DNA of 64,000 bases, from assembly GCF_024502345.1 (NCBI RefSeq), contig NZ_JALDNN010000001.1. One strand, given 5' to 3'. The DNA comes from Escherichia coli (GTDB lineage Bacteria > Pseudomonadota > Gammaproteobacteria > Enterobacterales > Enterobacteriaceae). A program made the position numbers and the translations under genes. The notes beneath the pieces were generated by a model. The model was not told the DNA's origin, did no database searches, and was given only the letters and a program-made list of their open reading frames with translations. This document shows positions 2,650 to 35,214 of this stretch, piece after piece; the first letter of the stretch is position 1, and every line of letters begins with the position of its first letter.

Positions 2650-2655
2650 TCAGTG

Positions 2656-2735: not shown

Positions 2736-2746
2736 AATTAACCGTA

Positions 2747-4476: not shown

Positions 4477-4477
4477 G

Positions 4478-8577: not shown

Positions 8578-8585
8578 GGTTAGCG

Positions 8586-8613: not shown

Positions 8614-8614
8614 G

Positions 8615-8899: not shown

Positions 8900-9098
8900 A
8901 ATTATAATAAATATTATTGTTGAGTGTTATATTATTATTCCTGTGTGATACATTGAGCAAAGACGCGTTCATCTTCGTCAAAGATATTATTAAATGCTGG
9001 TTTTGAAAAAAGTTCATCGGATAAGATATAGTCACGAAATAAGTATCTGCTAATATTTTATGATTTCTTTTTCAGAACGTCGAACGGGATTTTCTTAT

Positions 9099-9254: not shown

Positions 9255-9348
9255 AGCTTGCACTGCTAAATTTCGAACAAGGAATTTTCTGCTGGTAATC
9301 TCTAAAAAGATGGCATGGTTTACAATGATTTTTGTTTCCTTTTGATTA

Positions 9349-11018: not shown

Positions 11019-11250
11019 CCCTGAAAAGTCCTTTTATGGCATGCTATTTTATCAATGGCAATATTATGCTTGTTAATTGTTATTTATTTACTCCAGGAAA
11101 TTGTAGGCGTATATATTAAAAAAATATTACACTTTAGGAAGTAATTATGAGTTAAATCTCAATATATGTATTGGGCAAATAAATACCTTAAAGGAAGGTA
11201 TGTCGATTTTGAATGACACCCTTTTTCCATCTCAGAAAAAGGGCACTATC

Positions 11251-11739
11251 TTACTTCACCCGCGCCATATAATATGCATCGACATATTCACCATTACGCA
11301 ATGCGTACTTCTTACCAGTCCCTTCAATTTCAAAGCCGTATTTTTTATAGACCTTAATTGCCGGGGCGTTATCGACAAACACGGTTAGTTCAATGCGATC
11401 TACCCGCAACCAGTTGTCGCACATTTCAATCATCTCTCGCATCAGGGCGCTGGCGACGCCGCGGTTCTTCCAACGAGAGTCGACACAGATACCAAAATCG
11501 GCAACATGACTGCGGCGTGGGCGCTGTTGCACGTCAATGGTGAGATGGCCCACGACGTCTCCATCAATACAGGCGACGAGTTGCTTGATGCCGGGACGAT
11601 CGGCGAGTCGCTCCTGCCACATATGATCGGAAGGATGAGGCACCTGTAGTGTGTTGCAATACACCTCCGGCTGGGCGTGAATCTGCCTGATGGCCTCGTA
11701 ATCCCGTGTTTCTGCGTGGCGTATTACTATCTCACTCAT
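11251..11739 (-). CDS. yhhY: GNAT-family N-acetyltransferase YhhY
   Basis: ORF track 11251..11817; start reassigned to ATG 11739 (MSEIVIRHAETRDYEAIRQIH...), 162 aa, with a GGA-rich RBS upstream. Confidence 0.9.
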   Translation of the reverse strand: MSEIVIRHAETRDYEAIRQIHAQPEVYCNTLQVPHPSDHMWQERLADRPGIKQLVACIDGDVVGHLTIDVQQRPRRSHVADFGICVDSRWKNRGVASALMREMIEMCDNWLRVDRIELTVFVDNAPAIKVYKKYGFEIEGTGKKYALRNGEYVDAYYMARVK

Positions 11740-11822
11740 TCCTTTGTCCTCTTTGGGGTAAATGTCCCTTTCAACATCATTGACTTTCAAATGCGAGTCA
11801 AATGCATTTTTTTGCAAAAAGT

Positions 11823-11860
11823 GTTGGACAAGTGCGAATGAGAATGATTATTATTGTCTC
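11823..11860 (+). promoter_or_regulatory. ryhB promoter with Fur box
   Basis: ttggacaagtgcgaatgagaatgattattattgtctc lies directly upstream of the RyhB +1; the gaatgagaatgattattatt segment resembles the Fur-box consensus gataatgataatcattatc. Confidence 0.6.
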
Positions 11861-11950
11861 GCGATCAGGAAGACCCTCGCGGAGAACCTGAAAGCACGAC
11901 ATTGCTCACATTGCTTCCAGTATTACTTAGCCAGCCGGGTGCTGGCTTTT
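11861..11950 (+). ncRNA. ryhB: RyhB small RNA (Fur-repressed, iron-sparing response)
   Basis: The 90 nt gcgatcaggaagaccctcgcggagaacctgaaagcacgacattgctcacattgcttccagtattacttagccagccgggtgctggctttt match RyhB as I recall it, ending in a Rho-independent terminator (gccagccgggtgctggc + T9). Lies between yhhY and yhhX as in K-12. Confidence 0.9.
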
Positions 11951-12071
11951 TTTTTGATCTTTCGTTCTCAATTTATCCACGGGAGTGCTTGTGTTCGTTA
12001 TGCGCACTCCAGTAGGAACCACGTCCGCTTTGCGCTAAGGTGTAAATAACCACCTTAAAAAGGACGAAATC

Positions 12072-13109
12072 ATGGTCATCAACTGCGCCTTTATTGGCTT
12101 CGGCAAAAGCACCACCCGTTACCATCTGCCGTATGTACTTAACCGCAAGGATAGCTGGCATGTCGCGCATATTTTTCGTCGCCATGCGAAGCCGGAAGAA
12201 CAGGCTCCCATTTATTCCCATATCCATTTCACCAGCGATCTCGACGAAGTACTAAACGATCCCGATGTTAAGCTGGTTGTTGTCTGCACCCACGCGGACA
12301 GCCATTTCGAGTACGCGAAACGCGCGCTGGAAGCCGGGAAAAATGTGCTGGTCGAAAAACCGTTCACTCCGACACTTGCGCAGGCGAAAGAGCTGTTTGC
12401 ACTGGCGAAAAGCAAAGGGCTGACCGTCACGCCATATCAGAATCGTCGCTTTGATTCCTGCTTCCTGACGGCGAAAAAAGCGATTGAAAGCGGCAAGCTG
12501 GGAGAGATTGTCGAAGTGGAAAGCCATTTTGACTATTACCGCCCGGTGGCAGAAACCAAACCTGGACTGCCGCAGGATGGCGCGTTCTATGGCCTTGGTG
12601 TGCATACGATGGACCAGATTATTTCTCTGTTCGGTCGCCCGGATCACGTCGCTTATGACATCCGCAGCCTGCGTAATACAGCCAATCCTGACGACACCTT
12701 TGAAGCGCAACTGTTTTATGGCGACCTGAAAGCCATCGTCAAAACCAGCCATCTGGTGAAAATCGATTATCCGAAATTTATCGTTCACGGTAAGAAAGGT
12801 TCGTTTATTAAATACGGTATCGACCAGCAGGAAACCAGCCTGAAGGCTAATATTATGCCGGGCGAACCGGGATTCGCAGCGGATGATTCGGTCGGTGTGC
12901 TGGAGTATGTCAATGACGAGGGCGTGACGGTCAGAGAAGAGATGAAGCCGGAGATGGGCGATTACGGGCGCGTTTATGATGCGTTGTATCAAACCATCAC
13001 CCACGGTGCGCCAAATTACGTCAAGGAATCTGAAGTTCTTACCAATCTGGAAATCTTTGAACGCGGATTTGAGCAAGCCTCTCCCTCCACAGTAACTCTC
13101 GCTAAGTAA
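12072..13109 (+). CDS. yhhX: Putative NAD(P)-dependent oxidoreductase (Gfo/Idh/MocA family) YhhX
   Basis: 345-aa ORF; N-terminal Rossmann motif (AFIGFGKSTTRYH); synteny. Confidence 0.9.
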   Translation: MVINCAFIGFGKSTTRYHLPYVLNRKDSWHVAHIFRRHAKPEEQAPIYSHIHFTSDLDEVLNDPDVKLVVVCTHADSHFEYAKRALEAGKNVLVEKPFTPTLAQAKELFALAKSKGLTVTPYQNRRFDSCFLTAKKAIESGKLGEIVEVESHFDYYRPVAETKPGLPQDGAFYGLGVHTMDQIISLFGRPDHVAYDIRSLRNTANPDDTFEAQLFYGDLKAIVKTSHLVKIDYPKFIVHGKKGSFIKYGIDQQETSLKANIMPGEPGFAADDSVGVLEYVNDEGVTVREEMKPEMGDYGRVYDALYQTITHGAPNYVKESEVLTNLEIFERGFEQASPSTVTLAK

Positions 13110-13231
13110 GTTTGATGGCCCCTCGAATAGTTCAATTTTTTTGAACAGAGGGGTCAATTTTCACCCTCTATCATCCCAGGCAGATCGGGTCCACACTAAG
13201 CCCATCGAAATCATTCAGGGGGCGAATACAA

Positions 13232-13927
13232 ATGATCTACTTACGCAAAGCAAATGAACGTGGTCATGCAAATCATGGCTGGCTGGACTCCTGGCATACT
13301 TTCTCTTTTGCCAACTATTACGATCCGAACTTTATGGGCTTCTCCGCGCTGCGCGTGATTAACGACGACGTGATTGAAGCAGGGCAGGGCTTCGGCACTC
13401 ACCCGCATAAAGATATGGAAATTTTGACCTACGTGCTGGAAGGTACTGTTGAGCATCAGGACAGCATGGGCAATAAAGAGCAGGTTCCGGCGGGTGAGTT
13501 CCAGATTATGAGTGCGGGTACGGGTATTCGTCACTCAGAGTACAACCCAAACAGCACCGAGCGTCTGCATCTGTATCAGATCTGGATCATGCCTGAAGAA
13601 AATGGCATTACGCCGCGTTATGAACAGCGTCGCTTCGATGCCGTGCAGGGCAAACAGCTGGTGCTCTCGCCGGATGCGCGAGATGGTTCGCTGAAAGTGC
13701 ATCAGGATATGGAACTGTATCGTTGGGCGTTGCTGAAAGATGAGCAGTCGGTGCATCAGATTGCCGCTGAACGCCGCGTCTGGATCCAGGTGGTGAAAGG
13801 CAATGTCACCATTAACAGCGTGAAAGCCTCGACCAGCGATGGTCTGGCAATCTGGGATGAGCAGGCAATTTCCATCCATGCGGATAGCGACAGCGAAGTG
13901 TTACTGTTCGATCTGCCGCCGGTTTAA
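13232..13927 (+). CDS. yhhW: Pirin-like quercetin 2,3-dioxygenase YhhW
   Basis: 231-aa ORF with a cupin His motif (HPHKDMEILTYVLEG); synteny. Confidence 0.9.
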   Translation: MIYLRKANERGHANHGWLDSWHTFSFANYYDPNFMGFSALRVINDDVIEAGQGFGTHPHKDMEILTYVLEGTVEHQDSMGNKEQVPAGEFQIMSAGTGIRHSEYNPNSTERLHLYQIWIMPEENGITPRYEQRRFDAVQGKQLVLSPDARDGSLKVHQDMELYRWALLKDEQSVHQIAAERRVWIQVVKGNVTINSVKASTSDGLAIWDEQAISIHADSDSEVLLFDLPPV

Positions 13928-13944
13928 AGCTCCACGGCATTTTT

Positions 13945-13968
13945 GAAGCCTGCCTTTTTGCAGGCTTC
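13945..13968. terminator. Hairpin downstream of yhhW (possible terminator)
   Basis: Stem gaagcctgc / gcaggcttc with a T-rich loop; no clear U-tract after the stem on either strand. Confidence 0.35.
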
Positions 13969-14150
13969 CTCGCTCGCTCCGGTCGCGTGCTGATGCACGC
14001 TTCCGGGGTTTTGCCGCGTCGTTAGCACAATGCGATGCAATTGATTTAGTGTATATCTAATAATTGTAAACAAGCACTGTTTTCCCCGGGAAGGTTCTGA
14101 TGCGTCCGTGTTAAACTAAGAGAATCTATCTCTTTTGTACCTTCAGGACG

Positions 14151-15146
14151 ATGAAAAAGAAAAGACCCGTACTTCAGGATGTGGCTGACCGTGTAGGCGT
14201 GACCAAAATGACGGTCAGCCGTTTTTTACGCAACCCGGAGCAGGTTTCCGTCGCTCTACGCGGCAAGATTGCCGCCGCTCTTGATGAACTGGGCTATATT
14301 CCCAATCGTGCGCCCGATATCCTCTCTAACGCTACCAGCCGGGCGATTGGCGTCCTGTTACCTTCTCTCACCAACCAGGTTTTCGCGGAAGTATTACGCG
14401 GAATCGAAAGCGTCACCGACGCGCACGGTTATCAAACCATGCTGGCGCACTACGGTTATAAACCGGAAATGGAGCAAGAACGCCTCGAATCCATGCTCTC
14501 ATGGAATATCGATGGACTGATCCTCACCGAACGTACCCACACGCCGCGCACCTTAAAGATGATTGAAGTGGCGGGGATCCCGGTGGTGGAACTCATGGAC
14601 AGCCAGTCGCCGTGCCTCGATATCGCCGTCGGTTTTGATAACTTTGAAGCGGCACGCCAGATGACCACCGCCATTATTGCTCGCGGGCATTGCCACATTG
14701 CCTATCTCGGCGCGCGTCTCGACGAACGTACTATCATCAAACAGAAGGGATACGAACAGGCGATGCTGGATGCAGGTCTGGTGCCGTATAGCGTGATGGT
14801 TGAGCAATCTTCTTCTTACTCTTCCGGTATTGAACTGATTCGCCAGGCGCGGCGGGAATATCCGCAGCTGGATGGCGTGTTCTGTACCAACGATGACCTG
14901 GCGGTCGGCGCGGCGTTTGAATGTCAGCGTCTGGGATTGAAGGTTCCTGACGATATGGCGATTGCCGGTTTCCACGGTCATGACATTGGCCAGGTGATGG
15001 AGCCGCGGTTAGCGAGCGTGCTGACGCCGCGTGAGCGGATGGGCAGTATTGGCGCTGAACGCCTGCTGGCGCGTATTCGTGGCGAATCTGTGACACCGAA
15101 AATGTTAGATTTAGGTTTCACCTTGTCACCGGGCGGATCTATTTAA
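14151..15146 (+). CDS. gntR: Gluconate operon repressor (LacI family)
   Basis: 331-aa ORF with N-terminal HTH (LQDVADRVGVTKMTVSRFL); synteny with gntKU. Confidence 0.95.
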   Translation: MKKKRPVLQDVADRVGVTKMTVSRFLRNPEQVSVALRGKIAAALDELGYIPNRAPDILSNATSRAIGVLLPSLTNQVFAEVLRGIESVTDAHGYQTMLAHYGYKPEMEQERLESMLSWNIDGLILTERTHTPRTLKMIEVAGIPVVELMDSQSPCLDIAVGFDNFEAARQMTTAIIARGHCHIAYLGARLDERTIIKQKGYEQAMLDAGLVPYSVMVEQSSSYSSGIELIRQARREYPQLDGVFCTNDDLAVGAAFECQRLGLKVPDDMAIAGFHGHDIGQVMEPRLASVLTPRERMGSIGAERLLARIRGESVTPKMLDLGFTLSPGGSI

Positions 15147-15225
15147 GCCTACAAATTTGAAGTAGCTCACACTTATACACTTAAGGCACGGATGGATATT
15201 GCTTCTGATATTGTCCGGCTGGACA

Positions 15226-15254
15226 ATGTTACCGATAACAGTTACCCGTAACAT
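15226..15254 (+). promoter_or_regulatory. GntR operator palindrome upstream of gntK
   Basis: atgttaccgataacagttacccgtaacat is an inverted repeat (atgttac ... gtaacat) of the GntR operator type, about 30 bp upstream of the gntK start. Confidence 0.6.
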
Positions 15255-15284
15255 TTTTAATTCTTGTATTGTGGGGGCACCACT

Positions 15285-15812
15285 TTGAGCACGACTAACC
15301 ATGATCACCACATTTACGTCTTGATGGGCGTATCGGGCAGCGGCAAATCTGCGGTCGCCAGTGAAGTGGCGCATCAACTTCATGCCGCGTTTCTTGATGG
15401 CGATTTCCTCCATCCACGGCGCAATATCGAAAAAATGGCGTCTGGCGAACCGCTGAATGATGACGATCGCAAACCGTGGCTGCAGGCGCTGAACGACGCC
15501 GCGTTTGCTATGCAGCGCACCAATAAAGTGTCGCTGATCGTCTGTTCTGCACTGAAAAAGCACTATCGCGACTTGCTGCGTGAAGGTAATCCGAATCTCT
15601 CTTTCATCTACCTGAAAGGCGATTTTGATGTGATTGAAAGTCGCTTGAAAGCGCGCAAAGGCCATTTCTTTAAAACCCAAATGTTGGTGACGCAGTTTGA
15701 AACGCTGCAGGAGCCGGGTGCGGACGAAACCGATGTGCTGGTGGTGGATATCGATCAACCGCTGGAAGGTGTTGTGGCAAGCACCATTGAGGTTATTAAA
15801 AAAGGCAAATAA
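15285..15812 (+). CDS. gntK: Gluconokinase (thermoresistant), probable TTG start
   Basis: ORF track 15264..15812; recalled GntK starts MSTTNHDHHIYVLMGVSGSGKS, which corresponds to TTG at 15285 (175 aa). P-loop GVSGSGKS. Confidence 0.9.
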   Translation: MSTTNHDHHIYVLMGVSGSGKSAVASEVAHQLHAAFLDGDFLHPRRNIEKMASGEPLNDDDRKPWLQALNDAAFAMQRTNKVSLIVCSALKKHYRDLLREGNPNLSFIYLKGDFDVIESRLKARKGHFFKTQMLVTQFETLQEPGADETDVLVVDIDQPLEGVVASTIEVIKKGK

Positions 15813-15815
15813 GTA

Positions 15816-17156
15816 GTGACTACATTAACGCTTGTTTTAACAGCAGTAGGGTCTGTTTTACTGCTGCTGTTTTTAGTCATGAAGGCGCGTATGCACGCTT
15901 TCCTGGCTTTGATGGTGGTGTCCATGGGGGCTGGCCTTTTTTCCGGTATGCCGCTCGATAAAATCGCAGCGACGATGGAAAAAGGGATGGGAGGCACCCT
16001 CGGCTTCCTGGCGGTGGTTGTCGCCCTGGGAGCTATGTTTGGCAAGATCTTACATGAAACCGGCGCAGTCGATCAGATTGCCGTCAAAATGCTCAAATCC
16101 TTCGGTCACAGCCGCGCGCATTATGCCATCGGCCTTGCGGGGTTGGTCTGTGCGCTACCGCTGTTCTTTGAAGTGGCGATAGTTCTGCTGATTAGCGTTG
16201 CTTTCTCAATGGCGCGCCACACCGGTACGAACCTGGTGAAGCTGGTAATCCCATTATTCGCAGGCGTGGCGGCAGCGGCGGCGTTCCTGGTGCCAGGGCC
16301 AGCGCCAATGCTGCTGGCATCGCAGATGAACGCCGATTTTGGCTGGATGATCCTGATTGGCCTGTGTGCGGCAATTCCGGGAATGATTATTGCCGGGCCG
16401 CTGTGGGGTAATTTCATCAGCCGCTACGTGGAGTTGCATATTCCTGACGACATCAGCGAACCGCATCTCGGCGAAGGCAAAATGCCATCTTTCGGATTCA
16501 GCCTGTCGCTGATCCTGTTGCCGCTGGTGCTGGTGGGGCTGAAAACCATTGCCGCGCGTTTTGTGCCAGAAGGCTCTACCGCTTACGAATGGTTCGAGTT
16601 TATTGGTCATCCGTTTACCGCGATTCTGGTTGCTTGTCTGGTAGCGATTTATGGCCTGGCAATGCGTCAGGGCATGCCAAAAGACAAAGTGATGGAGATT
16701 TGCGGTCACGCGCTGCAACCGGCGGGGATCATTCTGCTGGTGATTGGTGCAGGCGGCGTGTTCAAACAGGTGCTGGTTGACTCTGGCGTAGGTCCGGCAC
16801 TGGGCGAAGCGTTAACTGGCATGGGCCTGCCGATTGCTATCACCTGCTTCGTGCTGGCAGCTGCAGTGCGCATCATTCAGGGTTCTGCCACCGTAGCCTG
16901 TTTAACGGCGGTAGGACTGGTGATGCCGGTTATTGAACAACTGAACTACTCCGGTGCGCAAATGGCGGCGCTGTCGATTTGTATCGCTGGTGGTTCGATT
17001 GTTGTCAGCCACGTTAACGACGCCGGTTTCTGGTTGTTCGGTAAATTTACCGGCGCGACCGAAGCCGAAACGCTGAAAACCTGGACCATGATGGAAACCA
17101 TCCTCGGCACTGTCGGTGCCATCGTTGGGATGATTGCGTTCCAGCTGTTGAGTTAA
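15816..17156 (+). CDS. gntU: Low-affinity gluconate transporter (GntP family), GTG start
   Basis: 446-aa polytopic ORF starting GTG at 15816, 4 nt after the gntK stop. Confidence 0.9.
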   Translation: MTTLTLVLTAVGSVLLLLFLVMKARMHAFLALMVVSMGAGLFSGMPLDKIAATMEKGMGGTLGFLAVVVALGAMFGKILHETGAVDQIAVKMLKSFGHSRAHYAIGLAGLVCALPLFFEVAIVLLISVAFSMARHTGTNLVKLVIPLFAGVAAAAAFLVPGPAPMLLASQMNADFGWMILIGLCAAIPGMIIAGPLWGNFISRYVELHIPDDISEPHLGEGKMPSFGFSLSLILLPLVLVGLKTIAARFVPEGSTAYEWFEFIGHPFTAILVACLVAIYGLAMRQGMPKDKVMEICGHALQPAGIILLVIGAGGVFKQVLVDSGVGPALGEALTGMGLPIAITCFVLAAAVRIIQGSATVACLTAVGLVMPVIEQLNYSGAQMAALSICIAGGSIVVSHVNDAGFWLFGKFTGATEAETLKTWTMMETILGTVGAIVGMIAFQLLS

Positions 17157-17165
17157 GTTTGTTCG

Positions 17166-17196
17166 CCCGGTAGTTGTGACACTACCGGGTTCTTTT
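17166..17196 (+). terminator. Rho-independent terminator after gntU
   Basis: Stem cccggtagt / actaccggg (17166-17174 and 17181-17189), 6-nt loop, then ttctttt. Confidence 0.65.
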
Positions 17197-17212
17197 CGAA
17201 AAACTCTCCTCG

Positions 17213-17806
17213 TTACCCCTTCATCCACATTCGAATGCCGTCGAGGAACATCTGGGTTGCCATCATCACCAGAATCAATCCCATCAGGCGTTCAAGTGCG
17301 TTCACCCCTTTCTCGCCCAGCAGACGTAAAAATAGCGAAGACTGTAGCAGGATGACAAAGGTGCCGCCCCAGGCCAGCAGCAGAGCAATCACCAGATGTC
17401 CCATCTGATTCGGGTACTGATGAGACAACAACATCAGCGTGGCGAGAATAGTCGGCCCGGCGACTAACGGAATTGCCAACGGCACGATAAATGGCTCTTC
17501 ACCTGCCGGAAGCCCGCTGCTATTTCCTGAAGCGCTGGGGAAAATCATCTTAATGGCGATTAGAAACAGAATGATGCCGCCAGAAATGGAGACGGTTTCT
17601 GCTCGCAGGCTGAGAAATGCCAGAATTTTCTCACCCGCAAACAGGAACACCAGCATCACCAGGAGAGCAATAAGCAACTCTCGCACCATGATTGCCCGCC
17701 GTCTTTTCGGTTCAGTATGTTTCAGTACGGACATGAAAATAGGCAGGTTTCCGAGCGGATCCATAATCAGGATCAATAAAACTGCTGCAGAAATGATTTC
17801 ATTCAT
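17213..17806 (-). CDS. yhgN: UPF0056/MarC-family inner membrane protein YhgN
   Basis: 197-aa hydrophobic ORF; synteny between gntU and asd. Confidence 0.9.
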   Translation of the reverse strand: MNEIISAAVLLILIMDPLGNLPIFMSVLKHTEPKRRRAIMVRELLIALLVMLVFLFAGEKILAFLSLRAETVSISGGIILFLIAIKMIFPSASGNSSGLPAGEEPFIVPLAIPLVAGPTILATLMLLSHQYPNQMGHLVIALLLAWGGTFVILLQSSLFLRLLGEKGVNALERLMGLILVMMATQMFLDGIRMWMKG

Positions 17807-17997
17807 AACTCAAATTCCCTGATAATTGCCGCGGACTTTCTGCGTGCTAACAAAGCAGGATAAGTCGCATTACTGATGGCTTCGCTATCATTGATTAATT
17901 TCACTTGCGACTTTGGCTGCTTTTTGTATGGTGAAAGATGTGCCAAGAGGAGACCGGCACATTTATACAGCACACATCTTTGCAGGAAAAAACGCTT

Positions 17998-19101
17998 ATG
18001 AAAAATGTTGGTTTTATCGGCTGGCGCGGTATGGTCGGCTCCGTTCTCATGCAACGCATGGTTGAAGAGCGCGACTTCGACGCCATTCGCCCTGTCTTCT
18101 TTTCTACTTCTCAGCTTGGCCAGGCTGCGCCGTCTTTTGGCGGAACCACTGGCACACTTCAGGATGCCTTTGATCTGGAGGCGCTAAAGGCCCTCGATAT
18201 CATTGTGACCTGTCAGGGCGGCGATTATACCAACGAAATCTATCCAAAGCTTCGTGAAAGCGGATGGCAAGGTTACTGGATTGACGCAGCATCGTCTCTG
18301 CGCATGAAAGATGACGCCATCATCATTCTTGACCCCGTCAATCAGGACGTCATTACCGACGGATTAAATAATGGCATCAGGACTTTTGTTGGCGGTAACT
18401 GTACCGTAAGCCTGATGTTGATGTCGTTGGGTGGTTTATTCGCCAATGATCTTGTTGATTGGGTGTCCGTTGCAACCTACCAGGCCGCTTCCGGCGGTGG
18501 TGCGCGACATATGCGTGAGTTATTAACCCAGATGGGCCATCTGTATGGCCATGTGGCAGATGAACTCGCGACCCCGTCCTCTGCTATTCTCGATATCGAA
18601 CGCAAAGTCACAACCTTAACCCGTAGCGGTGAGCTGCCGGTGGATAACTTTGGCGTGCCGCTGGCGGGTAGCCTGATTCCGTGGATCGACAAACAGCTCG
18701 ATAACGGTCAGAGCCGCGAAGAGTGGAAAGGGCAGGCGGAAACCAACAAGATCCTCAACACATCTTCCGTAATTCCGGTAGATGGTTTATGTGTGCGTGT
18801 CGGGGCATTGCGCTGCCACAGCCAGGCATTCACTATTAAATTGAAAAAAGATGTGTCTATTCCGACCGTGGAAGAACTGCTGGCTGCGCACAATCCGTGG
18901 GCGAAAGTCGTTCCGAACGATCGGGAAATCACTATGCGTGAGCTAACCCCAGCTGCCGTTACCGGCACGCTGACCACGCCGGTAGGCCGCCTGCGTAAGC
19001 TGAATATGGGACCAGAGTTCCTGTCAGCCTTTACAGTGGGCGACCAGCTGCTGTGGGGGGCCGCGGAGCCGCTGCGTCGGATGCTTCGTCAACTGGCGTA
19101 A
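17998..19101 (+). CDS. asd: Aspartate-semialdehyde dehydrogenase
   Basis: ORF track 17938..19101; start set at ATG 17998 ([17 protein letters not shown]...), 367 aa. Confidence 0.95.
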
Positions 19102-19119
19102 TCTTTATTCATTAAATCT

Positions 19120-19137
19120 GGGGCGCGATGCCGCCCC
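19120..19137 (+). terminator. GC-rich hairpin after asd (possible terminator)
   Basis: ggggcg cgatgc cgcccc; weak U-tract. Confidence 0.4.
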
Positions 19138-19373
19138 TGTTAGTGCGTAATACAGGAGTAAGCGCAGATGTTTCATGATTTACCGGGAGTTAAATAGAGC
19201 ATTGGCTATTCTTTAAGGGTGGCTGAATACATGAGTATTCACAGCCTTACCTGAAGTGAGGACGACGCAGAGAGGATGCACAGAGTGCTGCGCCGTTCAG
19301 GTCAAAAAAATGTCACAACCAGAAGTCAAAAATCCAATTGGATGGGGTGACACAATAAAACAGGAAGACAAGC

Positions 19374-21560
19374 ATGTCCGATCGTATCGATAGAGACGTG
19401 ATTAACGCGCTAATTGCAGGCCATTTTGCGGATCCTTTTTCCGTACTGGGAATGCATAAAACCACCGCGGGACTGGAAGTCCGTGCCCTTTTACCCGACG
19501 CTACCGATGTGTGGGTGATTGAACCGAAAACCGGGCGCAAACTCGCAAAACTGGAGTGTCTCGACTCACGGGGATTCTTTAGCGGCGTCATTCCGCGACG
19601 TAAGAATTTTTTCCGCTATCAGTTGGCTGTTGTCTGGCATGGTCAGCAAAACCTGATTGATGATCCTTACCGTTTTGGTCCGCTAATCCAGGAAATGGAT
19701 GCCTGGCTATTATCTGAAGGTACTCACCTGCGCCCGTATGAAACCTTAGGCGCGCATGCAGATACTATGGATGGCGTCACAGGTACGCGTTTCTCTGTCT
19801 GGGCTCCAAACGCCCGTCGGGTCTCGGTGGTTGGGCAATTCAACTACTGGGACGGTCGCCGTCACCCGATGCGCCTGCGTAAAGAGAGCGGCATCTGGGA
19901 ACTGTTTATCCCTGGGGCGCATAACGGTCAGCTCTATAAATACGAGATCATTGATGCCAATGGCAACTTGCGTCTGAAGTCCGACCCTTATGCCTTCGAA
20001 GCGCAAATGCGCCCGGAAACCGCGTCTCTTATTTGCGGGCTGCCGGAAAAGGTTGTACAGACTGAAGAGCGCAAAAAAGCGAATCAGTTTGATGCGCCAA
20101 TCTCTATTTATGAAGTTCACCTGGGTTCCTGGCGTCGCCACACCGACAACAATTTCTGGTTGAGCTACCGCGAGCTGGCCGATCAACTGGTGCCTTATGC
20201 TAAATGGATGGGCTTTACCCACCTCGAACTACTGCCCATTAACGAGCATCCCTTCGATGGCAGTTGGGGTTATCAGCCAACCGGCCTGTATGCACCAACC
20301 CGCCGTTTTGGTACTCGCGACGACTTCCGTTATTTCATTGATGCCGCACACGCAGCTGGTCTGAACGTGATTCTCGACTGGGTGCCAGGCCACTTCCCGA
20401 CTGATGACTTTGCGCTTGCCGAATTTGATGGCACGAACTTGTATGAACACAGCGATCCGCGTGAAGGCTATCATCAGGACTGGAACACGCTGATCTACAA
20501 CTATGGTCGCCGTGAAGTCAGTAACTTCCTCGTCGGTAACGCGCTTTACTGGATTGAACGTTTTGGTATTGATGCGCTGCGCGTCGATGCGGTGGCGTCA
20601 ATGATTTATCGCGACTACAGCCGTAAAGAGGGGGAGTGGATCCCGAACGAATTTGGCGGGCGCGAGAATCTTGAAGCGATTGAATTCTTGCGTAATACCA
20701 ACCGTATTCTTGGTGAGCAGGTTTCCGGTGCGGTGACAATGGCTGAGGAGTCTACCGATTTCCCTGGCGTTTCTCGTCCGCAGGATATGGGCGGTCTGGG
20801 CTTCTGGTACAAGTGGAACCTCGGCTGGATGCATGACACCCTGGACTACATGAAGCTCGACCCGGTTTATCGTCAGTATCATCACGATAAACTGACCTTC
20901 GGGATTCTCTACAACTACACTGAAAACTTCGTCCTGCCGTTGTCGCATGATGAAGTGGTCCACGGTAAAAAATCGATTCTCGACCGCATGCCGGGCGACG
21001 CATGGCAGAAATTCGCGAACCTGCGCGCCTACTATGGCTGGATGTGGGCATTCCCGGGCAAGAAACTGCTGTTCATGGGGAACGAATTTGCCCAGGGCCG
21101 CGAGTGGAACCATGACGCCAGCCTCGACTGGCATCTGTTGGAAGGCGGCGATAACTGGCACCACGGTGTCCAGCGTCTGGTGCGCGATCTGAACCTCACC
21201 TACCGCCACCATAAAGCGATGCATGAACTGGATTTTGACCCGTACGGCTTTGAATGGCTGGTGGTGGATGACAAAGAACGCTCGGTGCTGATCTTTGTGC
21301 GTCGCGATAAAGAGGGTAACGAAATCATCGTTGCCAGTAACTTTACGCCGGTGCCGCGTCATGATTATCGCTTCGGCATTAATCAGCCAGGCAAATGGCG
21401 TGAGATCCTCAATACCGATTCCATGCACTATCACGGCAGTAATGCAGGTAATGGCGGCACGGTACACAGTGATGAGATTGCCAGCCACGGTCGTCAGCAT
21501 TCACTAAGCCTGACACTACCACCGCTGGCCACTATCTGGCTGGTTCGGGAGGCAGAATGA
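19374..21560 (+). CDS. glgB: 1,4-alpha-glucan branching enzyme
   Basis: 728-aa ORF; recalled GlgB sequence; first gene of glgBXCAP. Confidence 0.95.
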
Positions 21561-26276: not shown

Positions 26277-28742
<2,466 letters not shown>

Positions 28743-28758
28743 GTTCACCAATAAATAG

Positions 28759-28785
28759 AACGGGGCCAAAGGGTCCCGTTTTTTT
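28759..28785 (+). terminator. Rho-independent terminator after glgP
   Basis: 9-bp stem (aacggggcc / ggtcccgtt, one G-U pair) followed by a 7-T run. Confidence 0.7.
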
Positions 28786-28835
28786 CCGCCATCATTTCGG
28801 AAAAGTGTCCAGAAGGGGCAAGGGGACTCGGGGAG

Positions 28836-28841
28836 TATAAT
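28836..28841 (+). promoter_or_regulatory. Candidate -10 hexamer (TATAAT) upstream of the first islet gene
   Basis: Perfect tataat about 18 nt upstream of ATG 28859; no convincing -35. Speculative. Confidence 0.2.
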
Positions 28842-28858
28842 TTCACCATTCAAAAAGA

Positions 28859-30376
28859 ATGGAAAGAATAATGCAAAACAGAAAATGGATTTTGTCCTCG
28901 CTGGTAATGACTTTTTTCGGCATCCCCATACTGACGCAATTTTTGGCGGCGGTTGTTGCTATGCTGGGTGTCGGACTTGCCGGTATTATTGAAGTTTGTA
29001 ATATCCTTATCACGCCAACAAGTTACCTTCTGCTCAACATTTTTATGCTGGCGCTGGGCGCATTAATGCTATTTTTCTCGGGGCGAGTATGGGCAGGCGA
29101 TAGTGCACCAGAAAAAAGAGAAATAGCCGTCTGGCGACAATGTCTTTTTTTAGTACCCGGTTTATTAATCCTGGTTGGCTGGATAATCGCGCTGCATCTG
29201 GCAGATTATCAATTTCACCAGATGGGATCGGGTTGGTTGGCTGATCTTATGCTCCCCTGGCTGGGCGTTTTGTTAGTCTCAGTAGTCGGAGGTGAGTACT
29301 GGTGGATAGTCATTATACCCGTTGGCGCGCATATCAGTTTTTCGCTGGGGTACGGCCGGCCAACCAGACATCCTTTAACCGGTACATCCGGGCTACGTTG
29401 CCGTAATTCCCTCCTGTTTATCCTTCTCATGCTTGGTTTTGTCGCTGGTTATCAGGGTTATTTATATAAACAGCTCAATCCCGGCGTCGGTGTGCGCGAA
29501 AATATTGATACCTGGGCCTGGCGACCCGATAAACTCAATAATCAACTGACACCACTGCGTGGTAAACCGCAAATTCAGTTTACGCAAAACTGGCCGCGAC
29601 TCGATGGTGCTACGGCGGCGTACCCAATTTATGCCTCTGCATTTTATGCTTTAAGCGTTATACCGGAAGATTTTCACACCAGGGAATATCTGGAGAGCTC
29701 TCGTACCCCCGATGCGTATAACAGGATTGTTAAAGGTGATGCTGATAGTATTTTTGTGGCGCAACCTTCCGGTGGGCAGAAAAAACGCGCTGAGGAATCG
29801 GGCGTTACTTTGCTGTACACGCCTTTTGCCCGTGAAGCGTTTGTTTTCATCGTCAATGCGGATAATCCGGTTAATTCCCTGACTGAACAACAGGTGCGTG
29901 ACATCTTCAGTGGTGCAATTACCAACTGGCGTACTGTTGGCGGTAACGATCAGGAGATCCAGACCTGGCAACGCCCGGAAGACTCTGGTAGCCAGACGGT
30001 GATGCAATCCCAGGTCATGAAAAATGTCCGCATGATCTCGCCGCAGGAAACAGAAGTGGCAAGTATGATGGAGGGAATGATTAAAGTCGTTGCCGAATAC
30101 CGTAATACAAACAACTCAATAGGTTACACCTTCCGTTATTACGCAACACAAATGAACGCCGATAAAAATATAAAACTGCTAGCGATTAACGGTATTGCAC
30201 CGACTGCCGAAAACATTCGCAACGGCAAATATCCCTATATCGTCGATGCCTTTATGGTAACGCGGGAAAATACGATGTCAGAGACACAAAAATTGTTGGA
30301 GTGGTTTTTAACGCCGCAGGGACAGAGTTTGGTGGAAGATGTAGGTTATGTCCCGATGTATAAGACGCTACCTTAA
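28859..30376 (+). CDS. Membrane-anchored protein: N-terminal polytopic domain fused to a C-terminal PstS-fold periplasmic-binding-protein-like domain; function unknown
   Basis: 505 aa. Residues 1 to about 190 contain several hydrophobic helices. The C-terminal half carries PstS-family motifs (LTEQQVRDIFSGAITNWRTVGG; RPEDSGSQ; IGYTFRYY; LLAINGIAPTAENIRNGKYPY; VGYVPMY). Alternative start ATG 28871. As I recall, K-12 keeps only a short pseudogene remnant (yzgL) at this position. Confidence 0.8.
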   Translation: MERIMQNRKWILSSLVMTFFGIPILTQFLAAVVAMLGVGLAGIIEVCNILITPTSYLLLNIFMLALGALMLFFSGRVWAGDSAPEKREIAVWRQCLFLVPGLLILVGWIIALHLADYQFHQMGSGWLADLMLPWLGVLLVSVVGGEYWWIVIIPVGAHISFSLGYGRPTRHPLTGTSGLRCRNSLLFILLMLGFVAGYQGYLYKQLNPGVGVRENIDTWAWRPDKLNNQLTPLRGKPQIQFTQNWPRLDGATAAYPIYASAFYALSVIPEDFHTREYLESSRTPDAYNRIVKGDADSIFVAQPSGGQKKRAEESGVTLLYTPFAREAFVFIVNADNPVNSLTEQQVRDIFSGAITNWRTVGGNDQEIQTWQRPEDSGSQTVMQSQVMKNVRMISPQETEVASMMEGMIKVVAEYRNTNNSIGYTFRYYATQMNADKNIKLLAINGIAPTAENIRNGKYPYIVDAFMVTRENTMSETQKLLEWFLTPQGQSLVEDVGYVPMYKTLP

Positions 30377-30460
30377 AGCTGGATAATAAAAATGGAATTA
30401 GTTAATACATTATTTGCAAGCCTTGCCGGTACTGATCCCTTCACAGGCGTGGATATTACG

Positions 30461-30469
30461 ATTGCCAAC
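30461..30469. repeat. 9-bp target-site duplication (left copy) attgccaac
   Basis: Identical to 31527..31535, directly flanking the IS termini. Confidence 0.85.
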
Positions 30470-30487
30470 GGCTTTGTTGAATAAATC
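30470..30487. repeat. IS903 terminal inverted repeat (18 bp)
   Basis: ggctttgttgaataaatc; exact reverse complement is found at 31509..31526. Confidence 0.9.
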
Positions 30488-30525
30488 AGATTTCGGGTAA
30501 GTCTCCCCCGTAGCGGGTTGTGTTT

Positions 30526-31449
30526 TCAGGCAATACGCACGCTTTCAGGCATACCTGCTTTCGTCATTTTGTTCAGCGCTCGTACCAGGGCCATAGCCTC
30601 TGCAACCTGACCATCGTAGTCACGCAGTGTCAGTGAACCCCCGAACAGCTGTTTTACCCGGTACATCGCCGTTTCCGCTATCGAGCGACGGTTGTAATCT
30701 GTTGTCCATTTCCACCGCGCATTACTCCCGGTCATTCGCTGATTAGCCACTGCACGGTTACGGTCTGCATATTCACCGGGCCAGTAACCCGCACCTTTTC
30801 GGGGAGGGATAAGCGCGCTGATTTTCTTACGCCGCAGTTCATCGTGACATAGCCGGGTATCGTAAGCGCCATCGGCGGCGGCTGACCTGATTTTCCGGTG
30901 GGTTTGCCGGATTAACCCGGGGAAGGCCTCTGAGTCCGTAACGTTGTTCAGCGACAGGTCAGCGCAGATGATTTCATGTGTTTTACTGTCAACGGCGAGA
31001 TGCAGCTTACGCCAGATACGGCGGCGTTCCTGGCCATGCTTTTTGACTTTCCACTCGCCTTCACCGAAGACCTTCAGCCCGGTGGAATCAATTACCAGGT
31101 GTGCGATTTCACCCCGGGTGGGCGTTTTGAAACTGACATTAACCGACTTTGCCCGCCTGCTGACACAGCTGTAATCCGGGCAGCGTAGCGGAACGTTCAT
31201 CAGAGAAAAAATGGAATCAATAAAGCCCTGCGCAGCGCGCAGGGTCAGCCTGAATACGCGTTTAATGACCAGCACAGTCGTGATGGCAAGGTCAGAATAG
31301 CGCTGAGGTCTGCCTCGTGAAGAAGGTGTTGCTGACTCATACCAGGCCTGAATAGCTTCATCATCCAGCCAGAAAGTTATGGAGCCACGGTTGATGAGGG
31401 CTTTATTGTAGGTGGGCCAGTTGGTGATTTTGAACTTTTGCTTTGCCAC
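30526..31449 (-). CDS. IS903 transposase (DDE, IS5 family)
   Basis: ORF track 30526..31494 (TTG); probable GTG start at 31449 giving 307 aa beginning MAKQKFKITNWPTYNKALINRGS..., which matches my recollection of the IS903 transposase; also ...LVIDSTGLKVFGEGEWKVKKHG.... Confidence 0.9.
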   Translation of the reverse strand: MAKQKFKITNWPTYNKALINRGSITFWLDDEAIQAWYESATPSSRGRPQRYSDLAITTVLVIKRVFRLTLRAAQGFIDSIFSLMNVPLRCPDYSCVSRRAKSVNVSFKTPTRGEIAHLVIDSTGLKVFGEGEWKVKKHGQERRRIWRKLHLAVDSKTHEIICADLSLNNVTDSEAFPGLIRQTHRKIRSAAADGAYDTRLCHDELRRKKISALIPPRKGAGYWPGEYADRNRAVANQRMTGSNARWKWTTDYNRRSIAETAMYRVKQLFGGSLTLRDYDGQVAEAMALVRALNKMTKAGMPESVRIA

Positions 31450-31508
31450 GGAACGGTCTGCGTTGTCGGGAAGATACGTGATCTGATCCTTCAACTCAGC
31501 AAAAGTTC

Positions 31509-31526
31509 GATTTATTCAACAAAGCC
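31509..31526. repeat. IS903 terminal inverted repeat (18 bp, other end)
   Basis: gatttattcaacaaagcc = reverse complement of 30470..30487. Confidence 0.9.
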
Positions 31527-31535
31527 ATTGCCAAC
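31527..31535. repeat. 9-bp target-site duplication (right copy) attgccaac
   Basis: Identical to 30461..30469. Confidence 0.85.
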
Positions 31536-32170
31536 TGCAAATCGGCATACTGGGATGAAGGCATTGTTCAGCAACTTATTAACCAGGCCCTGGATGAAGG
31601 GGAAAAGTTCGTCGGTGCTGACGGTCTTGAGGGATTGCTTCGATATGATGTCACATTAAATATTGGCTTAACCTCCAGCAAGGTATGGCCGGGATTTTCC
31701 CTCGATACCGCCACCATTAGCCGTCTTTGTGCCTGTGGTGCTGATTTTGGATTTGACCCCTATATCAGTGATGTACCAGATGTTCAATGTGACCTGAACA
31801 CGACAAATGACGTCACCGTACAATTTACGGCGATGCTAAATCCGGATGAGCGGGTGATAATAGCAAAGCGCCCGCTTAAAAAATGTGACTCCTGGATTGA
31901 GGATGTCTATATCTTTCAGGTCTTAAAAGATGCCTGGAAATTTCATAACAATAACAGTTTACGCGGATTTCGCGATAAGCAGGCCGAACTGAAACTCTAC
32001 ACGCGTCATTACTCAGTGGAAAATTGCGCAGAGGAAAGCTGTCGAGACTGCAATAGTTGCATTCGCCCCAGCTTTTCCCTTTCGCGTAGCGCCCTTATTC
32101 GCCTGAACGCGGCGAATGCTCGTTTTGTCTATCAACCGTTTACACGCGATCAGCGGGCGAGGGGGTAACT

Positions 32171-32938
32171 ATGCAACCCAGCCCTGCCATGCAGGCATTA
32201 ATTGAGCAGATTTATCACACCTTTCGTCGTTATCGGGTGCCGCAGAAATTTGTGGTTTGTTGTGAATATTGCCTGAGTCAGCAGGAACAAAAGGCATTAC
32301 GGAGTACATCGTTACGAGCGATCCCGTATTCCTTAATCAATGCCTGGAATAGTAGCCCAGGGCCTGATCCGCAAAATAGCGATGAGGTCCGCTATTTTCT
32401 GCCGCGTTTACTGGAATTTGTTGCACAGGGGCATTTTGACAATATTCACGTAGTTTTTTCTCTGCGCCGTATCAACCTTGCCAACAAAGAAAACTGGCGT
32501 GCGGATGAACGGGCAATTTTACAGCGATTTGCCTGCCAGTATATGACTGATTGGGTATCCGGCGATGAAGCTGTCGAATTACAGTATATGCTGGAAATGT
32601 TTTTCCGTGCCGATATCGCTCTTGCGCCATTGCTGGATGCCATTAATTCAGTTCCCGGCTTTTGGTCGACCGTTTCTCTTGCCTGTTTATTGAACAGATA
32701 TTGTGAGGATTATATCAGAGATAACCAGGACGATATCGATAACGCCATTACCACCCAAATCAATGCCTGGGCTAGAAATAATCATCCTTTACTGAAAGAA
32801 AGAGCGCGGCAAGCGATTGAGAACCCGCTAAAACAGCCCGAACCAATGACAGAATATCATGTCTGGGAAGATGACTGGATAATTGATGAGTGTTTATGCG
32901 CGATGTATGACGCATCATCCGAATCACCAGGAAAATAA
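32171..32938 (+). CDS. Third islet gene, hypothetical protein (255 aa), no recognisable motif
   Basis: ORF starts 2 nt after the stop of the preceding gene; soluble-looking; no family recognised by eye. Confidence 0.7.
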   Translation: MQPSPAMQALIEQIYHTFRRYRVPQKFVVCCEYCLSQQEQKALRSTSLRAIPYSLINAWNSSPGPDPQNSDEVRYFLPRLLEFVAQGHFDNIHVVFSLRRINLANKENWRADERAILQRFACQYMTDWVSGDEAVELQYMLEMFFRADIALAPLLDAINSVPGFWSTVSLACLLNRYCEDYIRDNQDDIDNAITTQINAWARNNHPLLKERARQAIENPLKQPEPMTEYHVWEDDWIIDECLCAMYDASSESPGK

Positions 32939-32940
32939 AA

Positions 32941-33546
32941 ATGATTAAATTCCGGCTTTATATTCCCCCTGTAATTCTCGGTTTTGTTATCGTGCCATTA
33001 TTGGTATGGCCGACGGTTATTGTCTTAGCCGTACTTATATTCACGTTAACTTTTCTGGCAGAAATAATATTCTCCTTTCCGCTCCTGGTTGTACGTATTT
33101 CTCTTCAGGAATTACAACTTGAGTTAATGGTTGAATATGCACTTTTTTTCAGTGTAATGGCTGGCATCGGTTGGCAATTCTCCCGCAGAACGCCTCCTGA
33201 ATTAAAAAACAGACTGCATTGCTGGCTGGTCTTTTCGCCGGTCTATTTCTGGTTAATTCTCTCGAATTTCATTCTTTATATTTCTCCAGAGAAATCAGCG
33301 TTGCTGGAAAATATCCGAAATTTCTTTCTGACGTTTGTCTGGCCTCCCCTGAATTTTTCCCCTTTTTGGCCGCAGCCTTGGACTGATTTTGTCGGCCCGA
33401 TTAGTGCACAGCTTGGTTTTGCATTGGGATATTATTGCCATTGGTGCAGAAAAAATAGAAACCAGAGGAAGAAGTGGGGCGATTGGGTAACGTGCTTAAG
33501 TTTGGCGATTTTAGCTCAGGGGCCGTTATTCAATTATTTACAATGA
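32941..33546 (+). CDS. Fourth islet gene, small multi-pass membrane protein (201 aa), function unknown
   Basis: ORF starts 2 nt after the stop of the third gene; several hydrophobic segments (VILGFVIVPLLVWPTVIVLAVLIFTLTFLAEIIF; WLVFSPVYFWLILSNFILYI); lowest G+C of the islet by eye. Confidence 0.7.
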   Translation: MIKFRLYIPPVILGFVIVPLLVWPTVIVLAVLIFTLTFLAEIIFSFPLLVVRISLQELQLELMVEYALFFSVMAGIGWQFSRRTPPELKNRLHCWLVFSPVYFWLILSNFILYISPEKSALLENIRNFFLTFVWPPLNFSPFWPQPWTDFVGPISAQLGFALGYYCHWCRKNRNQRKKWGDWVTCLSLAILAQGPLFNYLQ

Positions 33547-33567
33547 ATAGTCTAAGGAATCCAAATA

Positions 33568-33590
33568 GCCCGGTTGCACTTCAACCGGGC
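33568..33590. terminator. Perfect hairpin between the convergent islet operon and glpD
   Basis: Stem gcccggttg / caaccgggc (9 bp) with 5-nt loop; lies between the stop of the fourth islet gene (33546) and the glpD stop (33598); no strong U-tract. Confidence 0.45.
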
Positions 33591-33597
33591 ATCATCC

Positions 33598-35103
33598 TTA
33601 CGACGCCAGCGACAACTTCTGCTGCGTATATTCCACCAGCCACTGACTCACACGAGATTGTTGATCCGCATTCAGCCACATGCCTTGTTTTGTGCGACGC
33701 CAAAGGGCATCGTCGGTGCGGCGGACCCATTCGTGATCCACCAGGTATTTCAGTTCCGCTTCGTAGAACTCATGACCGAAATCCTCCCCGAGGTCGCTTA
33801 TCGCCCCCGCATTGCCGAGCAGCAGCTCGCTGTTGCTGCCGTAAGTGCGTGCGTAATGACGCGCCAGCGATTCAGTCAGGAATGGATAGCGACGGCGCAG
33901 ACGAGCTGCGTAATCGTCGCGGTCGCCTTCAATGGCACCACCCGGCAGCACGCTCTCTTTCGTCCATGCCGGGCCAATGCCCTGATAATACGGCGTCAGT
34001 TTTTCCAGCGCATGTTCCGCCAGTTTGCGGTAGGTGGTCAACTTACCGCCGAATACCGACAGCAGCGGTGCTTTGCCGTTTTCATCATGGATATCAAGGG
34101 TGTAATCACGGGTAATAGCCTGCGGCGAGTCGGACTCATCATCACACAGCGGACGCACACCGGAGTAGGTCCAGACGATATCGTCACGGCTTAACTGCTT
34201 TTTAAAGTGCGTGTTATACACTTTCAGCAGGTAATTGATTTCACTCTCTTCAATCTTCACCGCTTTCGGATCGCCTTTGTATTCCACATCGGTGGTGCCG
34301 ATGATGGAAAACTCGTCCATCCACGGGATCACGAACACAATGCGTTTATCTTCGTTTTGCAGAATGTAGGCCTGCTTTTGGGTATGCACGCGCGGCACCA
34401 CAATATGGCTGCCTTTGATCAGGCGAATGCCATAAGGCGAAGGCAGATGCATCCCGTCGTCGAAGAACTGTTTCACCCACGGGCCGGTGGCGTTAACCAA
34501 GCCGCGCGCTTGCCAGCTATATTTTTTGCCGGTATCGATATCTTCCGCTTCCACAATCCACAGGCCGTTTTCGCGGCGAGCAGAGGTGGCGCGAGTCCGA
34601 GTAAGCACTTCGCCGCCTTTACGCACCACCATCTGGGCGTTGGCGAGTACCAGACGGGCGTCGTCTACCCAACAGTCAGAATATTCGAATCCGCGCTTAA
34701 TTTCCGGTTTTAACACTGAATTTGCGCCAAAACGCAAACCGGTTGATCCCGGCAGGCTGGTGCGTTTACCCAGATGATCGTACATAAACAGACCAATGCG
34801 AATCATCCACGCCGGGCGCAGATGCGGACGATGTGGCAGGCGAAAACGCATCGGGAAGGCGATATGCGGAGCCATTTTCAGCAGCACTTCACGTTCAGCC
34901 AGCGCCTCGCTGACCAGGCGGAATTCATAGTGCTCAAGGTAGCGCAGGCCACCGTGAATGAGTTTTGAACTGGCGGAAGAGGTCGCGCAAGCGAGATCCT
35001 GCGCCTCCAGCATCAGCACGGATAAACCGCGTCCAGCGGCGTCTGCCGCGATACCAGCACCATTGATGCCGCCACCTATCACAATCAGATCTTTGGTTTC
35101 CAT
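33598..35103 (-). CDS. glpD: Aerobic sn-glycerol-3-phosphate dehydrogenase
   Basis: ORF track 33598..35118; start set at ATG 35103 (METKDLIVIGGGINGAGIA...), 501 aa; FAD-binding GGGINGAG. Confidence 0.95.
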   Translation of the reverse strand: METKDLIVIGGGINGAGIAADAAGRGLSVLMLEAQDLACATSSASSKLIHGGLRYLEHYEFRLVSEALAEREVLLKMAPHIAFPMRFRLPHRPHLRPAWMIRIGLFMYDHLGKRTSLPGSTGLRFGANSVLKPEIKRGFEYSDCWVDDARLVLANAQMVVRKGGEVLTRTRATSARRENGLWIVEAEDIDTGKKYSWQARGLVNATGPWVKQFFDDGMHLPSPYGIRLIKGSHIVVPRVHTQKQAYILQNEDKRIVFVIPWMDEFSIIGTTDVEYKGDPKAVKIEESEINYLLKVYNTHFKKQLSRDDIVWTYSGVRPLCDDESDSPQAITRDYTLDIHDENGKAPLLSVFGGKLTTYRKLAEHALEKLTPYYQGIGPAWTKESVLPGGAIEGDRDDYAARLRRRYPFLTESLARHYARTYGSNSELLLGNAGAISDLGEDFGHEFYEAELKYLVDHEWVRRTDDALWRRTKQGMWLNADQQSRVSQWLVEYTQQKLSLAS

Positions 35104-35214
35104 GCTGCCCTCATTCACTTTCGTTAAAGCTCATAAATGTTCGTTATCGAACATATTAGCAAAGAATCGCCCTTTAGGTAACATTGAAAAAACATTTTAG
35201 AGTGATATGTATAA

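Follow-up and report, generated by a model that had tools for sequence, protein, structure and literature searches.

The stretch analysed here, hereafter the window, comprises 64,000 nucleotides (nt) of Escherichia coli chromosome (RefSeq assembly GCF_024502345.1, contig NZ_JALDNN010000001.1). Between glgP and glpD (window positions 28743-33597) it holds four genes on the + strand, which we refer to as the islet, and gene 2, the second of these, is interrupted by a copy of the insertion sequence (IS) IS903B. We are highly confident that this copy inserted at codon 26/27 of gene 2 and left a null allele. The following features carry this reading.

30392..30469, + strand: islet gene 2, 5' fragment, codons 1-26, MELVNTLFASLAGTDPFTGVDITIAN.
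30461..30469, no strand: left 9-bp target-site duplication, ATTGCCAAC, present as one copy only at the uninterrupted loci L001, L002, L005, L006 and L007.
30470..31526, - strand: IS903B, 1057 bp, with inverted repeats at 30470-30487 and 31509-31526.
30526..31494, - strand: IS903B transposase open reading frame (ORF), uninterrupted, NCBIfam NF033579.
31527..31535, no strand: right 9-bp target-site duplication, ATTGCCAAC, an exact repeat of the left one.
31536..32168, + strand: islet gene 2, 3' fragment, codons 27-236 and the stop codon, 99.8% identical to uninterrupted alleles.

IS903 is characterised by its size of about 1057 bp, its 18-bp inverted repeats and the 9-bp target duplication that it makes. 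The element at 30470-31526 has exactly this length, lies between the two ATTGCCAAC copies and carries the 18-bp inverted repeat GGCTTTGTTGAATAAATC at both ends without a mismatch. Many copies on chromosomes and plasmids match it at 100% identity over 1057 bp, and RefSeq annotates their product as 'IS5-like element IS903B family transposase'. Its own transposase scored 357 bits on the IS5 family transposase model NF033579, for which the cut-off is 140. This transposase is 322 amino acids (aa) long when read from a TTG start, as in RefSeq, or 307 aa in the classical reading from GTG 31449, and runs antiparallel to the islet genes. Length and repeats, duplication, transposase and sequence identity all agree, and the element is therefore IS903B, a member of the IS5 family with a DDE transposase. 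An exact 9-bp repeat would arise by chance with odds of about 4e-6; together with the identity to annotated IS903B over the full 1057 bp, this precludes that the arrangement is fortuitous. No second IS903B copy was found within the window, which indicates a simple insertion and not the arm of a composite transposon. Judged from its sequence, the copy is apparently active. It transposed into codon 26/27 of gene 2, the staggered cut giving rise to the 9-bp duplication; the resulting junction between gene 2 and IS903B reads, as a 36-mer, GATATTACGATTGCCAACGGCTTTGTTGAATAAATC.

The initial annotation of this stretch had claimed that the 26 codons from the ATG at 30392 end at the duplication, that the frame continues in phase from the second copy to the stop at 32168, and that removal in silico of the element with one duplication copy yields an ORF of 236 aa. 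We could reproduce all of this. The coordinates of the 26 codons agree, the frame is open from 31527 to the TAA at 32166-32168, and deletion of 30470-31535 gave a 711-nt ORF of 236 codons, from ATG 30392 to this TAA, with the N-terminus as quoted earlier. In a tblastn search with the rebuilt protein, residues 1-26 aligned at 30392-30469 and residues 24-236 at 31527-32165, the overlap being the three duplicated codons. The in-frame restoration upon excision, which had been put forward as the main observation, is true by construction: taking out the IS together with one duplication copy brings back the sequence as it was before the insertion, and a duplication of 9 bp necessarily leaves the downstream copy in phase. 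It is uninformative, and the informative question is whether there is a real gene with a coding sequence (CDS) that spans the insertion point. The duplication also happens to end at a codon boundary, for which the chance is 1 in 3, and this has no significance.

Translation of the interrupted allele yields 26 native residues, four residues encoded by the IS (GFVE) and a stop, TAA 30482-30484, which is supplied by the IS903B inverted repeat itself (GGCTTTGTTGAATAA). On the other side of the element, the frame of the 3' fragment is closed by IS-internal stops upstream of the second duplication copy, and the fragment offers no in-frame ATG, GTG or TTG before TTG 31635 (codon 60), which does not have the spacing for a ribosome-binding site. 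With a stub of 30 aa and no usable in-frame start for the remaining 210 codons, the gene 2 allele is null. Gene 2 is free of secondary lesions in this strain.

The reality of the CDS was supported by several lines of evidence. The search for intact homologues of the rebuilt ORF, which the initial annotation had proposed, was successful: RefSeq carries the same 711-nt CDS, from ATG to stop, at the uninterrupted loci of five E. coli strains (L001, L002, L005, L006 and L007), and the annotated intact proteins include WP_000424543.1, WP_000424555.1, WP_000424216.1, WP_000424219.1 and WP_023155836.1. The comparison with isolates free of the IS likewise revealed the empty site with a single ATTGCCAAC. 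Strains RM8352 and D7 (L002 and L007) contain the rebuilt 60-bp empty site letter for letter, and the three other loci show the single copy in the same context. The conclusion that the element inactivated the second gene of the islet thus stands, given the null allele, the real CDS and the empty site in other strains. In annotation, the two ORF fragments around IS903B should be treated as one pseudogene, namely an IS903B-interrupted homologue of WP_000424543.1.

Conservation of the protein extends across the insertion point. Two more distant homologues, 70% (P0008) and 53% (P0021) identical, are conserved over residues 1-26 and retain the N-terminal motif L..L.G.DP..G..I..A. The first of these stems from another enterobacterial genus, whose glgP and glpD show about 80% nt identity, and where genes 1 and 2 occupy the same glgP-glpD site (L003). 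There, the aligned gene 2 ATG lies 1 nt past the gene 1 stop, and at the locus of the 53%-identical homologue (L004) an ATG lies 16 nt past it. In both loci the gene callers had placed the start of gene 2 even further upstream. The called start in the other genus overlaps gene 1 by 41 nt; translation more likely begins at the conserved ATG, 1 nt past the stop of gene 1. An exhaustive HMMER search further retrieved stand-alone proteins of about 100 aa, 27-42% identical, which align to gene 2 residues from about 7 to about 103. Since the alignment of these relatives begins at residue 7 or so, residues 7-26 are part of the conserved domain.

Codons 1-26 also show the signature of purifying selection. 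Among E. coli alleles, the synonymous and nonsynonymous differences per site (pS and pN) amounted to 0.218 and 0.034, respectively, for this segment, a ratio of 0.16 from small counts, which is consistent with pN/pS of about 0.16-0.27 for gene 2 beyond codon 26. An AlphaFold2 model of residues 1-106 reached a predicted local distance difference test (pLDDT) score of 92.3 and a predicted template modelling (pTM) score of 0.84, its elements being, in order, strand 6-14, strand 21-29, helix 36-63, strand 66-74, helix 84-92 and strand 96-104. Lying after codon 26, the insertion falls within the modelled strand 21-29, so that IS903B splits the 236-codon CDS in the second beta-strand of the folded N-terminal domain. 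From the conserved protein, the purifying selection and the folded domain together, we conclude that the insertion is within a genuine CDS.

As for its age, the insertion is probably recent: the IS shows no difference from other copies, the two duplication copies match exactly, the rebuilt gene 2 product is one residue away from the O121 allele WP_000424543.1, and none of genes 1, 3 and 4 is damaged. The closest uninterrupted islets, 99.7-99.8% identical, were found in strains O39:NM F8704-2, O111:H11 88-19539 and O121 RM8352. Across 5,426 complete RefSeq E. coli genomes, a query spanning the left junction gave no match with at least 80% coverage, and the remnant ORF of 177 aa with its TTG start had no exact-sequence record in a large assembly collection. 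Among complete genomes, the insertion thus looks private to this strain or lineage. The target site is new, trivially so, while insertional inactivation by IS903B is itself already known. A search of the literature on the target preference of IS903 returned nothing usable.

The remaining features of the locus are needed to consider the effect on the neighbouring genes.

26295-28742, + strand: glgP, the 5' flank of the islet.
28859..30376, + strand: islet gene 1, an intact 505-aa ORF for a membrane-anchored PstS-family/PBP_like_2 protein.
32171..32938, + strand: islet gene 3, intact, 255 aa, no family match; RefSeq homologues are named 'hypothetical protein'.
32941..33546, + strand: islet gene 4, intact, 201 aa, hydrophobic, starting 2 nt past the gene 3 stop; 'hypothetical protein' in RefSeq homologues.
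33598-35118, - strand: glpD, the 3' flank of the islet.

The four islet genes are co-directional, with gaps of 15, 2 and 2 nt. The ATG of gene 3 lies 2 nt past the gene 2 stop, and a Shine-Dalgarno-like GAGGGGG is found within the 3' end of gene 2. The order of genes 1-4 is kept at the locus of the 53%-identical gene 2 homologue, where genes 3 and 4 still adjoin gene 2. Despite this operon-like spacing and order, the modules of the islet are separable in some strains. The product of gene 1, whose RefSeq homologues have 502 aa, matched Pfam PBP_like_2 at 1.8e-29 over residues 249-485 and TIGR02136 at 5.4e-34, the latter under the curated cut-off of that model. Neither gene 3 nor gene 4 matched a model of NCBIfam or PADLOC, and a Pfam scan that covered genes 1-3 likewise returned nothing for gene 3. 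The N-terminus of the gene 3 product is rich in cysteine (...VVCCEYCLSQ...). Upstream of the islet, a glgP terminator hairpin with a T-run is seen at 28762-28785. A perfect TATAAT at 28836-28841, about 18 nt 5' of the gene 1 ATG at 28859 and with no recognisable -35 element, is a candidate for the islet promoter, although it is absent from the output of our consensus scan. An Rfam search over 28000-34000 returned no match.

The initial annotation had also anticipated polar effects on genes 3 and 4. From the premature stop to the gene 3 ATG at 32171, the transcript of the interrupted allele contains 1,686 nt of untranslated RNA. Long untranslated mRNA is the classic substrate for Rho-dependent termination, and some 1.7 kb of such RNA, with the IS in antisense, would lower the expression of genes 3 and 4 by Rho-dependent polarity. 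Together with the 2-nt gene spacing, the length of this RNA makes polarity plausible. Two observations in other strains call for caution. In B2 strains, genes 2-4 stand behind a fimbrial operon with a gap of 173 nt, and in DA33137 gene 3 remains although gene 2 is deleted; from these arrangements, some independent expression of genes 3 and 4 is possible. One may go further and suppose that the insertion is neutral or even activating for both genes, driven either from the end of the IS, by a promoter that is outward-facing or hybrid, or from a promoter inside the 3' portion of gene 2. A promoter-like site scoring 9 of 12 on the + strand at 31795-31824 would fit the latter. Our scan for promoter and terminator patterns over 28600-33800, however, detected seven promoter-like sites where 8.1 were expected in shuffled sequences, and it revealed neither a + strand promoter-like site at the right IS end nor anything above shuffles that bears on polarity. 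The IS903B transposase promoter, moreover, faces the opposite way. We therefore consider a neutral or activating effect unlikely, and a polar reduction of genes 3 and 4 remains our preferred, if provisional, view.

The islet itself is highly variable. At least 80% of it is present in about 2430 of the 5426 complete genomes, and gene 2 in 2332. K-12 retains only a 346-bp yzgL remnant, a different cassette stands behind gene 1 in O157:H7, and in B2 strains it is gene 1 that the fimbrial operon replaces. Smaller lesions are also seen: DA33137 has internal stops in genes 1 and 4 in addition to its loss of gene 2, gene 1 is frameshifted in RM8352 and gene 3 in MDR_56, and truncated products of gene 2 are numerous in the protein database. 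Among these, a -1 frameshift in the A6 run 31878-31883 (in CTTAAAAAATG, encoding the KK of KRPLKKC), which changes the product to ...KRPLKNVTPGLR..., was found on different allelic backgrounds in five clusters at 90% identity (P0013, P0015, P0017, P0018 and P0020). The run would thus be a hotspot of mutation or else a contingency-like site, and some instances are possibly assembly errors. In the other enterobacterial genus, the locus with genes 1 and 2 (L003 4542-6932) also contains about 180 nt that can be aligned with the beginning of gene 3 and represent a remnant of it. With islet genes and this remnant at the same site, the islet is old there and decaying there too.

In the literature on yzgL and the glgP-glpD region we found only a genotyping paper, in which the glp-glg interval independently appears under the name 'hotspot A' (PMC13185298). 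That lesions and losses have arisen independently so many times supports the view that the islet is dispensable, and the loss of gene 2 would be tolerated for this reason. Of the proposal that the insertion reflects selection against the system or its neutrality, the dispensability was borne out by these repeated events; neutral and selected loss are not separable by the same data. Positive selection for the loss of gene 2, an adaptive knock-out in place of a tolerated neutral hit, could be read from the repeated independent inactivation of islet genes, such as the A6-run frameshift on several backgrounds. Relaxed selection, however, predicts the same pattern. Splits of IS size in the 633 nt of the 3' part of gene 2 are rare, as this part was found at 2335 places in 2332 complete-genome records, and with the insertion seen in 0 of 5,426 genomes, neither a sweep nor a recurrence at the site is indicated. 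We regard an adaptive knock-out as improbable, and a tolerated loss as the better description.

A second objection concerns gene 2 itself, which might be a chance ORF or already a pseudogene, so that nothing was inactivated. No Pfam, NCBIfam or PADLOC family was found above threshold, databases hold many truncated variants, and more than half of E. coli genomes lack the islet, all of which might be cited for a non-functional ORF. Against this, gene 2 persists with pN/pS near 0.2 among alleles whose DNA differs by as much as 8.5%, its protein is conserved at identities of 70% and 53% in other taxa with synteny, the N-terminal domain has a confident model and remote homologues, and the rebuilt allele is full length and one residue off WP_000424543.1. 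This makes a non-functional ORF very improbable. Least probable of all, and rejected here, is a placement of the IS in the 5' untranslated region with the true start of gene 2 downstream (e.g. at TTG codon 60, GTG codon 20 being cut off), for which the poor Shine-Dalgarno sequence of ATG 30392 and a mechanical 177-aa ORF from TTG 31635 might be invoked, whereas residues 7-26 are kept in every homologue down to 27% identity and form strands 1 and 2 of the domain modelled at pLDDT 92, codons 1-26 have pN/pS as low as the rest of gene 2, and the intact homologues starting downstream of the insertion, which the initial annotation had named as the decisive counter-evidence, were sought with the outcome that all full-length ones begin at or upstream of the equivalent of ATG 30392.

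Insertional inactivation of mgrB by IS903B is known from Klebsiella pneumoniae and is the closest analogue in kind. The element is the same (1057 bp, 18-bp repeats, 9-bp duplication, 100% identity), and so is the outcome, a null allele produced by simple insertion. In contrast to the known IS903B inactivations, the target gene is new and has no known selectable phenotype. With the yzgL remnant of K-12 and the other decay states of hotspot A (PMC13185298), the present case shares the locus and the lineage-specific nature of the loss. Whereas the islet is almost wholly deleted in K-12, however, all four genes are present here and only gene 2 is hit, by a mobile element and not by a deletion or point lesion. 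The insertion is thus one more independent inactivation at an already known variable hotspot, an ordinary event of little meaning beyond annotation.

A wider lead may come from the protein that gene 2 encodes. Searches of gene 2 in Pfam, NCBIfam and PADLOC gave no significant match. CARF3 (0.019) and DUF4286 (0.074) were rejected as noise, and a single designed protein at E 0.005, from a profile search of PDB sequences, was rejected too. The YbbD family (NF007301) reached 22.6 bits against a cut-off of 373, over profile positions 6-48 only, which speaks against membership, and the K-12 ybbD pseudogene (L010 7641-8131) had no detectable similarity to gene 2. The RefSeq name 'YbbD family protein' for some gene 2 alleles, which newer annotations give to WP_000424555.1, is therefore misleading.

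Structure comparison was more rewarding for the N-terminal domain. In the full-length AlphaFold2 model, the C-terminal half had pLDDT below 50, and the Foldseek search of the PDB with this model was meaningless. With the N-terminal domain, Foldseek on AFDB50 returned the protein's own family and then dozens of DUF4279 proteins (E 5e-5 to 4e-4, probability 1.00), with TM-scores of just 0.5-0.7. Pfam DUF4279 (PF14106) was not detected in gene 2 even at E values up to 10; among relatives, it was found in 2 of 14, weakly (best 3.5e-3), and P0050 carries precomputed 'weak' matches. The C-terminal half turned out to be a second, diverged copy of the domain, as hhalign aligned it to the profile of the N-terminal domain with 93.9% at E 1.5e-7. 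The two copies span residues of about 1-105 and 131-231 and have a common closing motif, RPsFsL...rLnaA.A.F...P(F/Y). Gene 2 is thus predicted to encode a tandem of two DUF4279-like domains, in the sense of a shared fold that the Pfam model does not recognise.

The stand-alone relatives, which end in ...FDFDPYV, provide a hint to function. Several of them lie directly 3' of Rhs C-terminal ORFs (L017 5597-6321, L018 2-789, L013 1-901), and P0050 belongs to an orphan Rhs toxin/immunity array in L017. The ORF that precedes P0050 has an Rhs DPxGL boundary, and its best Pfam match was Ntox33 (i-E 0.003); the unrelated gene that precedes P0058 likewise had Ntox33 as its best Pfam match (i-E 0.05). 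This suggests that the stand-alone relatives constitute an Ntox33-immunity family which Pfam DUF4279 captures weakly. In the literature, a candidate effector-immunity pair Rhs-Ntox33/DUF4279 was reported for Salmonella SPI-19 (PMC13304343), and DUF4279 was classed as immunity family FdL-Imm5 (PMC9424270). From the Rhs/Ntox33 context of the relatives and the published pair, an immunity-like, toxin-binding role would be our best guess for the gene 2 domain, and one of low confidence, short of membership in the immunity class.

The comparison with the FdL-Imm5 proteins (PMC9424270) shows both sides of this analogy. They have a predicted fold in common with the N-terminal domain of gene 2, whereas gene 2 is a two-domain tandem with no significant Pfam match to DUF4279 and has no adjoining toxin gene. 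Its neighbours are instead the PstS-like membrane protein and two uncharacterised genes, with the synteny kept in the 53%-identical homologue. NCBIfam, PADLOC and Pfam scans of the genes and a survey of the window revealed no toxin gene in the islet or the window, and within them a toxin-adjacent position is thus seen for the stand-alone relatives only, not for gene 2. A more specific proposal would be that gene 2 encodes a tandem-domain orphan immunity protein against Ntox33-type RNase toxins of Rhs/type VI secretion systems, kept with no linked toxin in about 45% of E. coli and embedded in a conserved module with the membrane-anchored PstS-like protein. We consider this a long shot; if it were true, the IS903B knock-out would leave the strain newly sensitive to the Ntox33-type effectors of competitors. 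The lead of wider interest is the family, since gene 2 would represent an uncharacterised two-domain branch of the DUF4279-like proteins with a conserved partnership with a membrane-anchored PstS-like protein, while the single-domain proteins of this family resemble immunity proteins of the Rhs/Ntox33 kind. The second domain copy of gene 2 additionally carries an inserted cysteine cluster, C-x5-C-x2-C-x2-C at residues of about 190-203, which is missing from the 53%-identical homologue.

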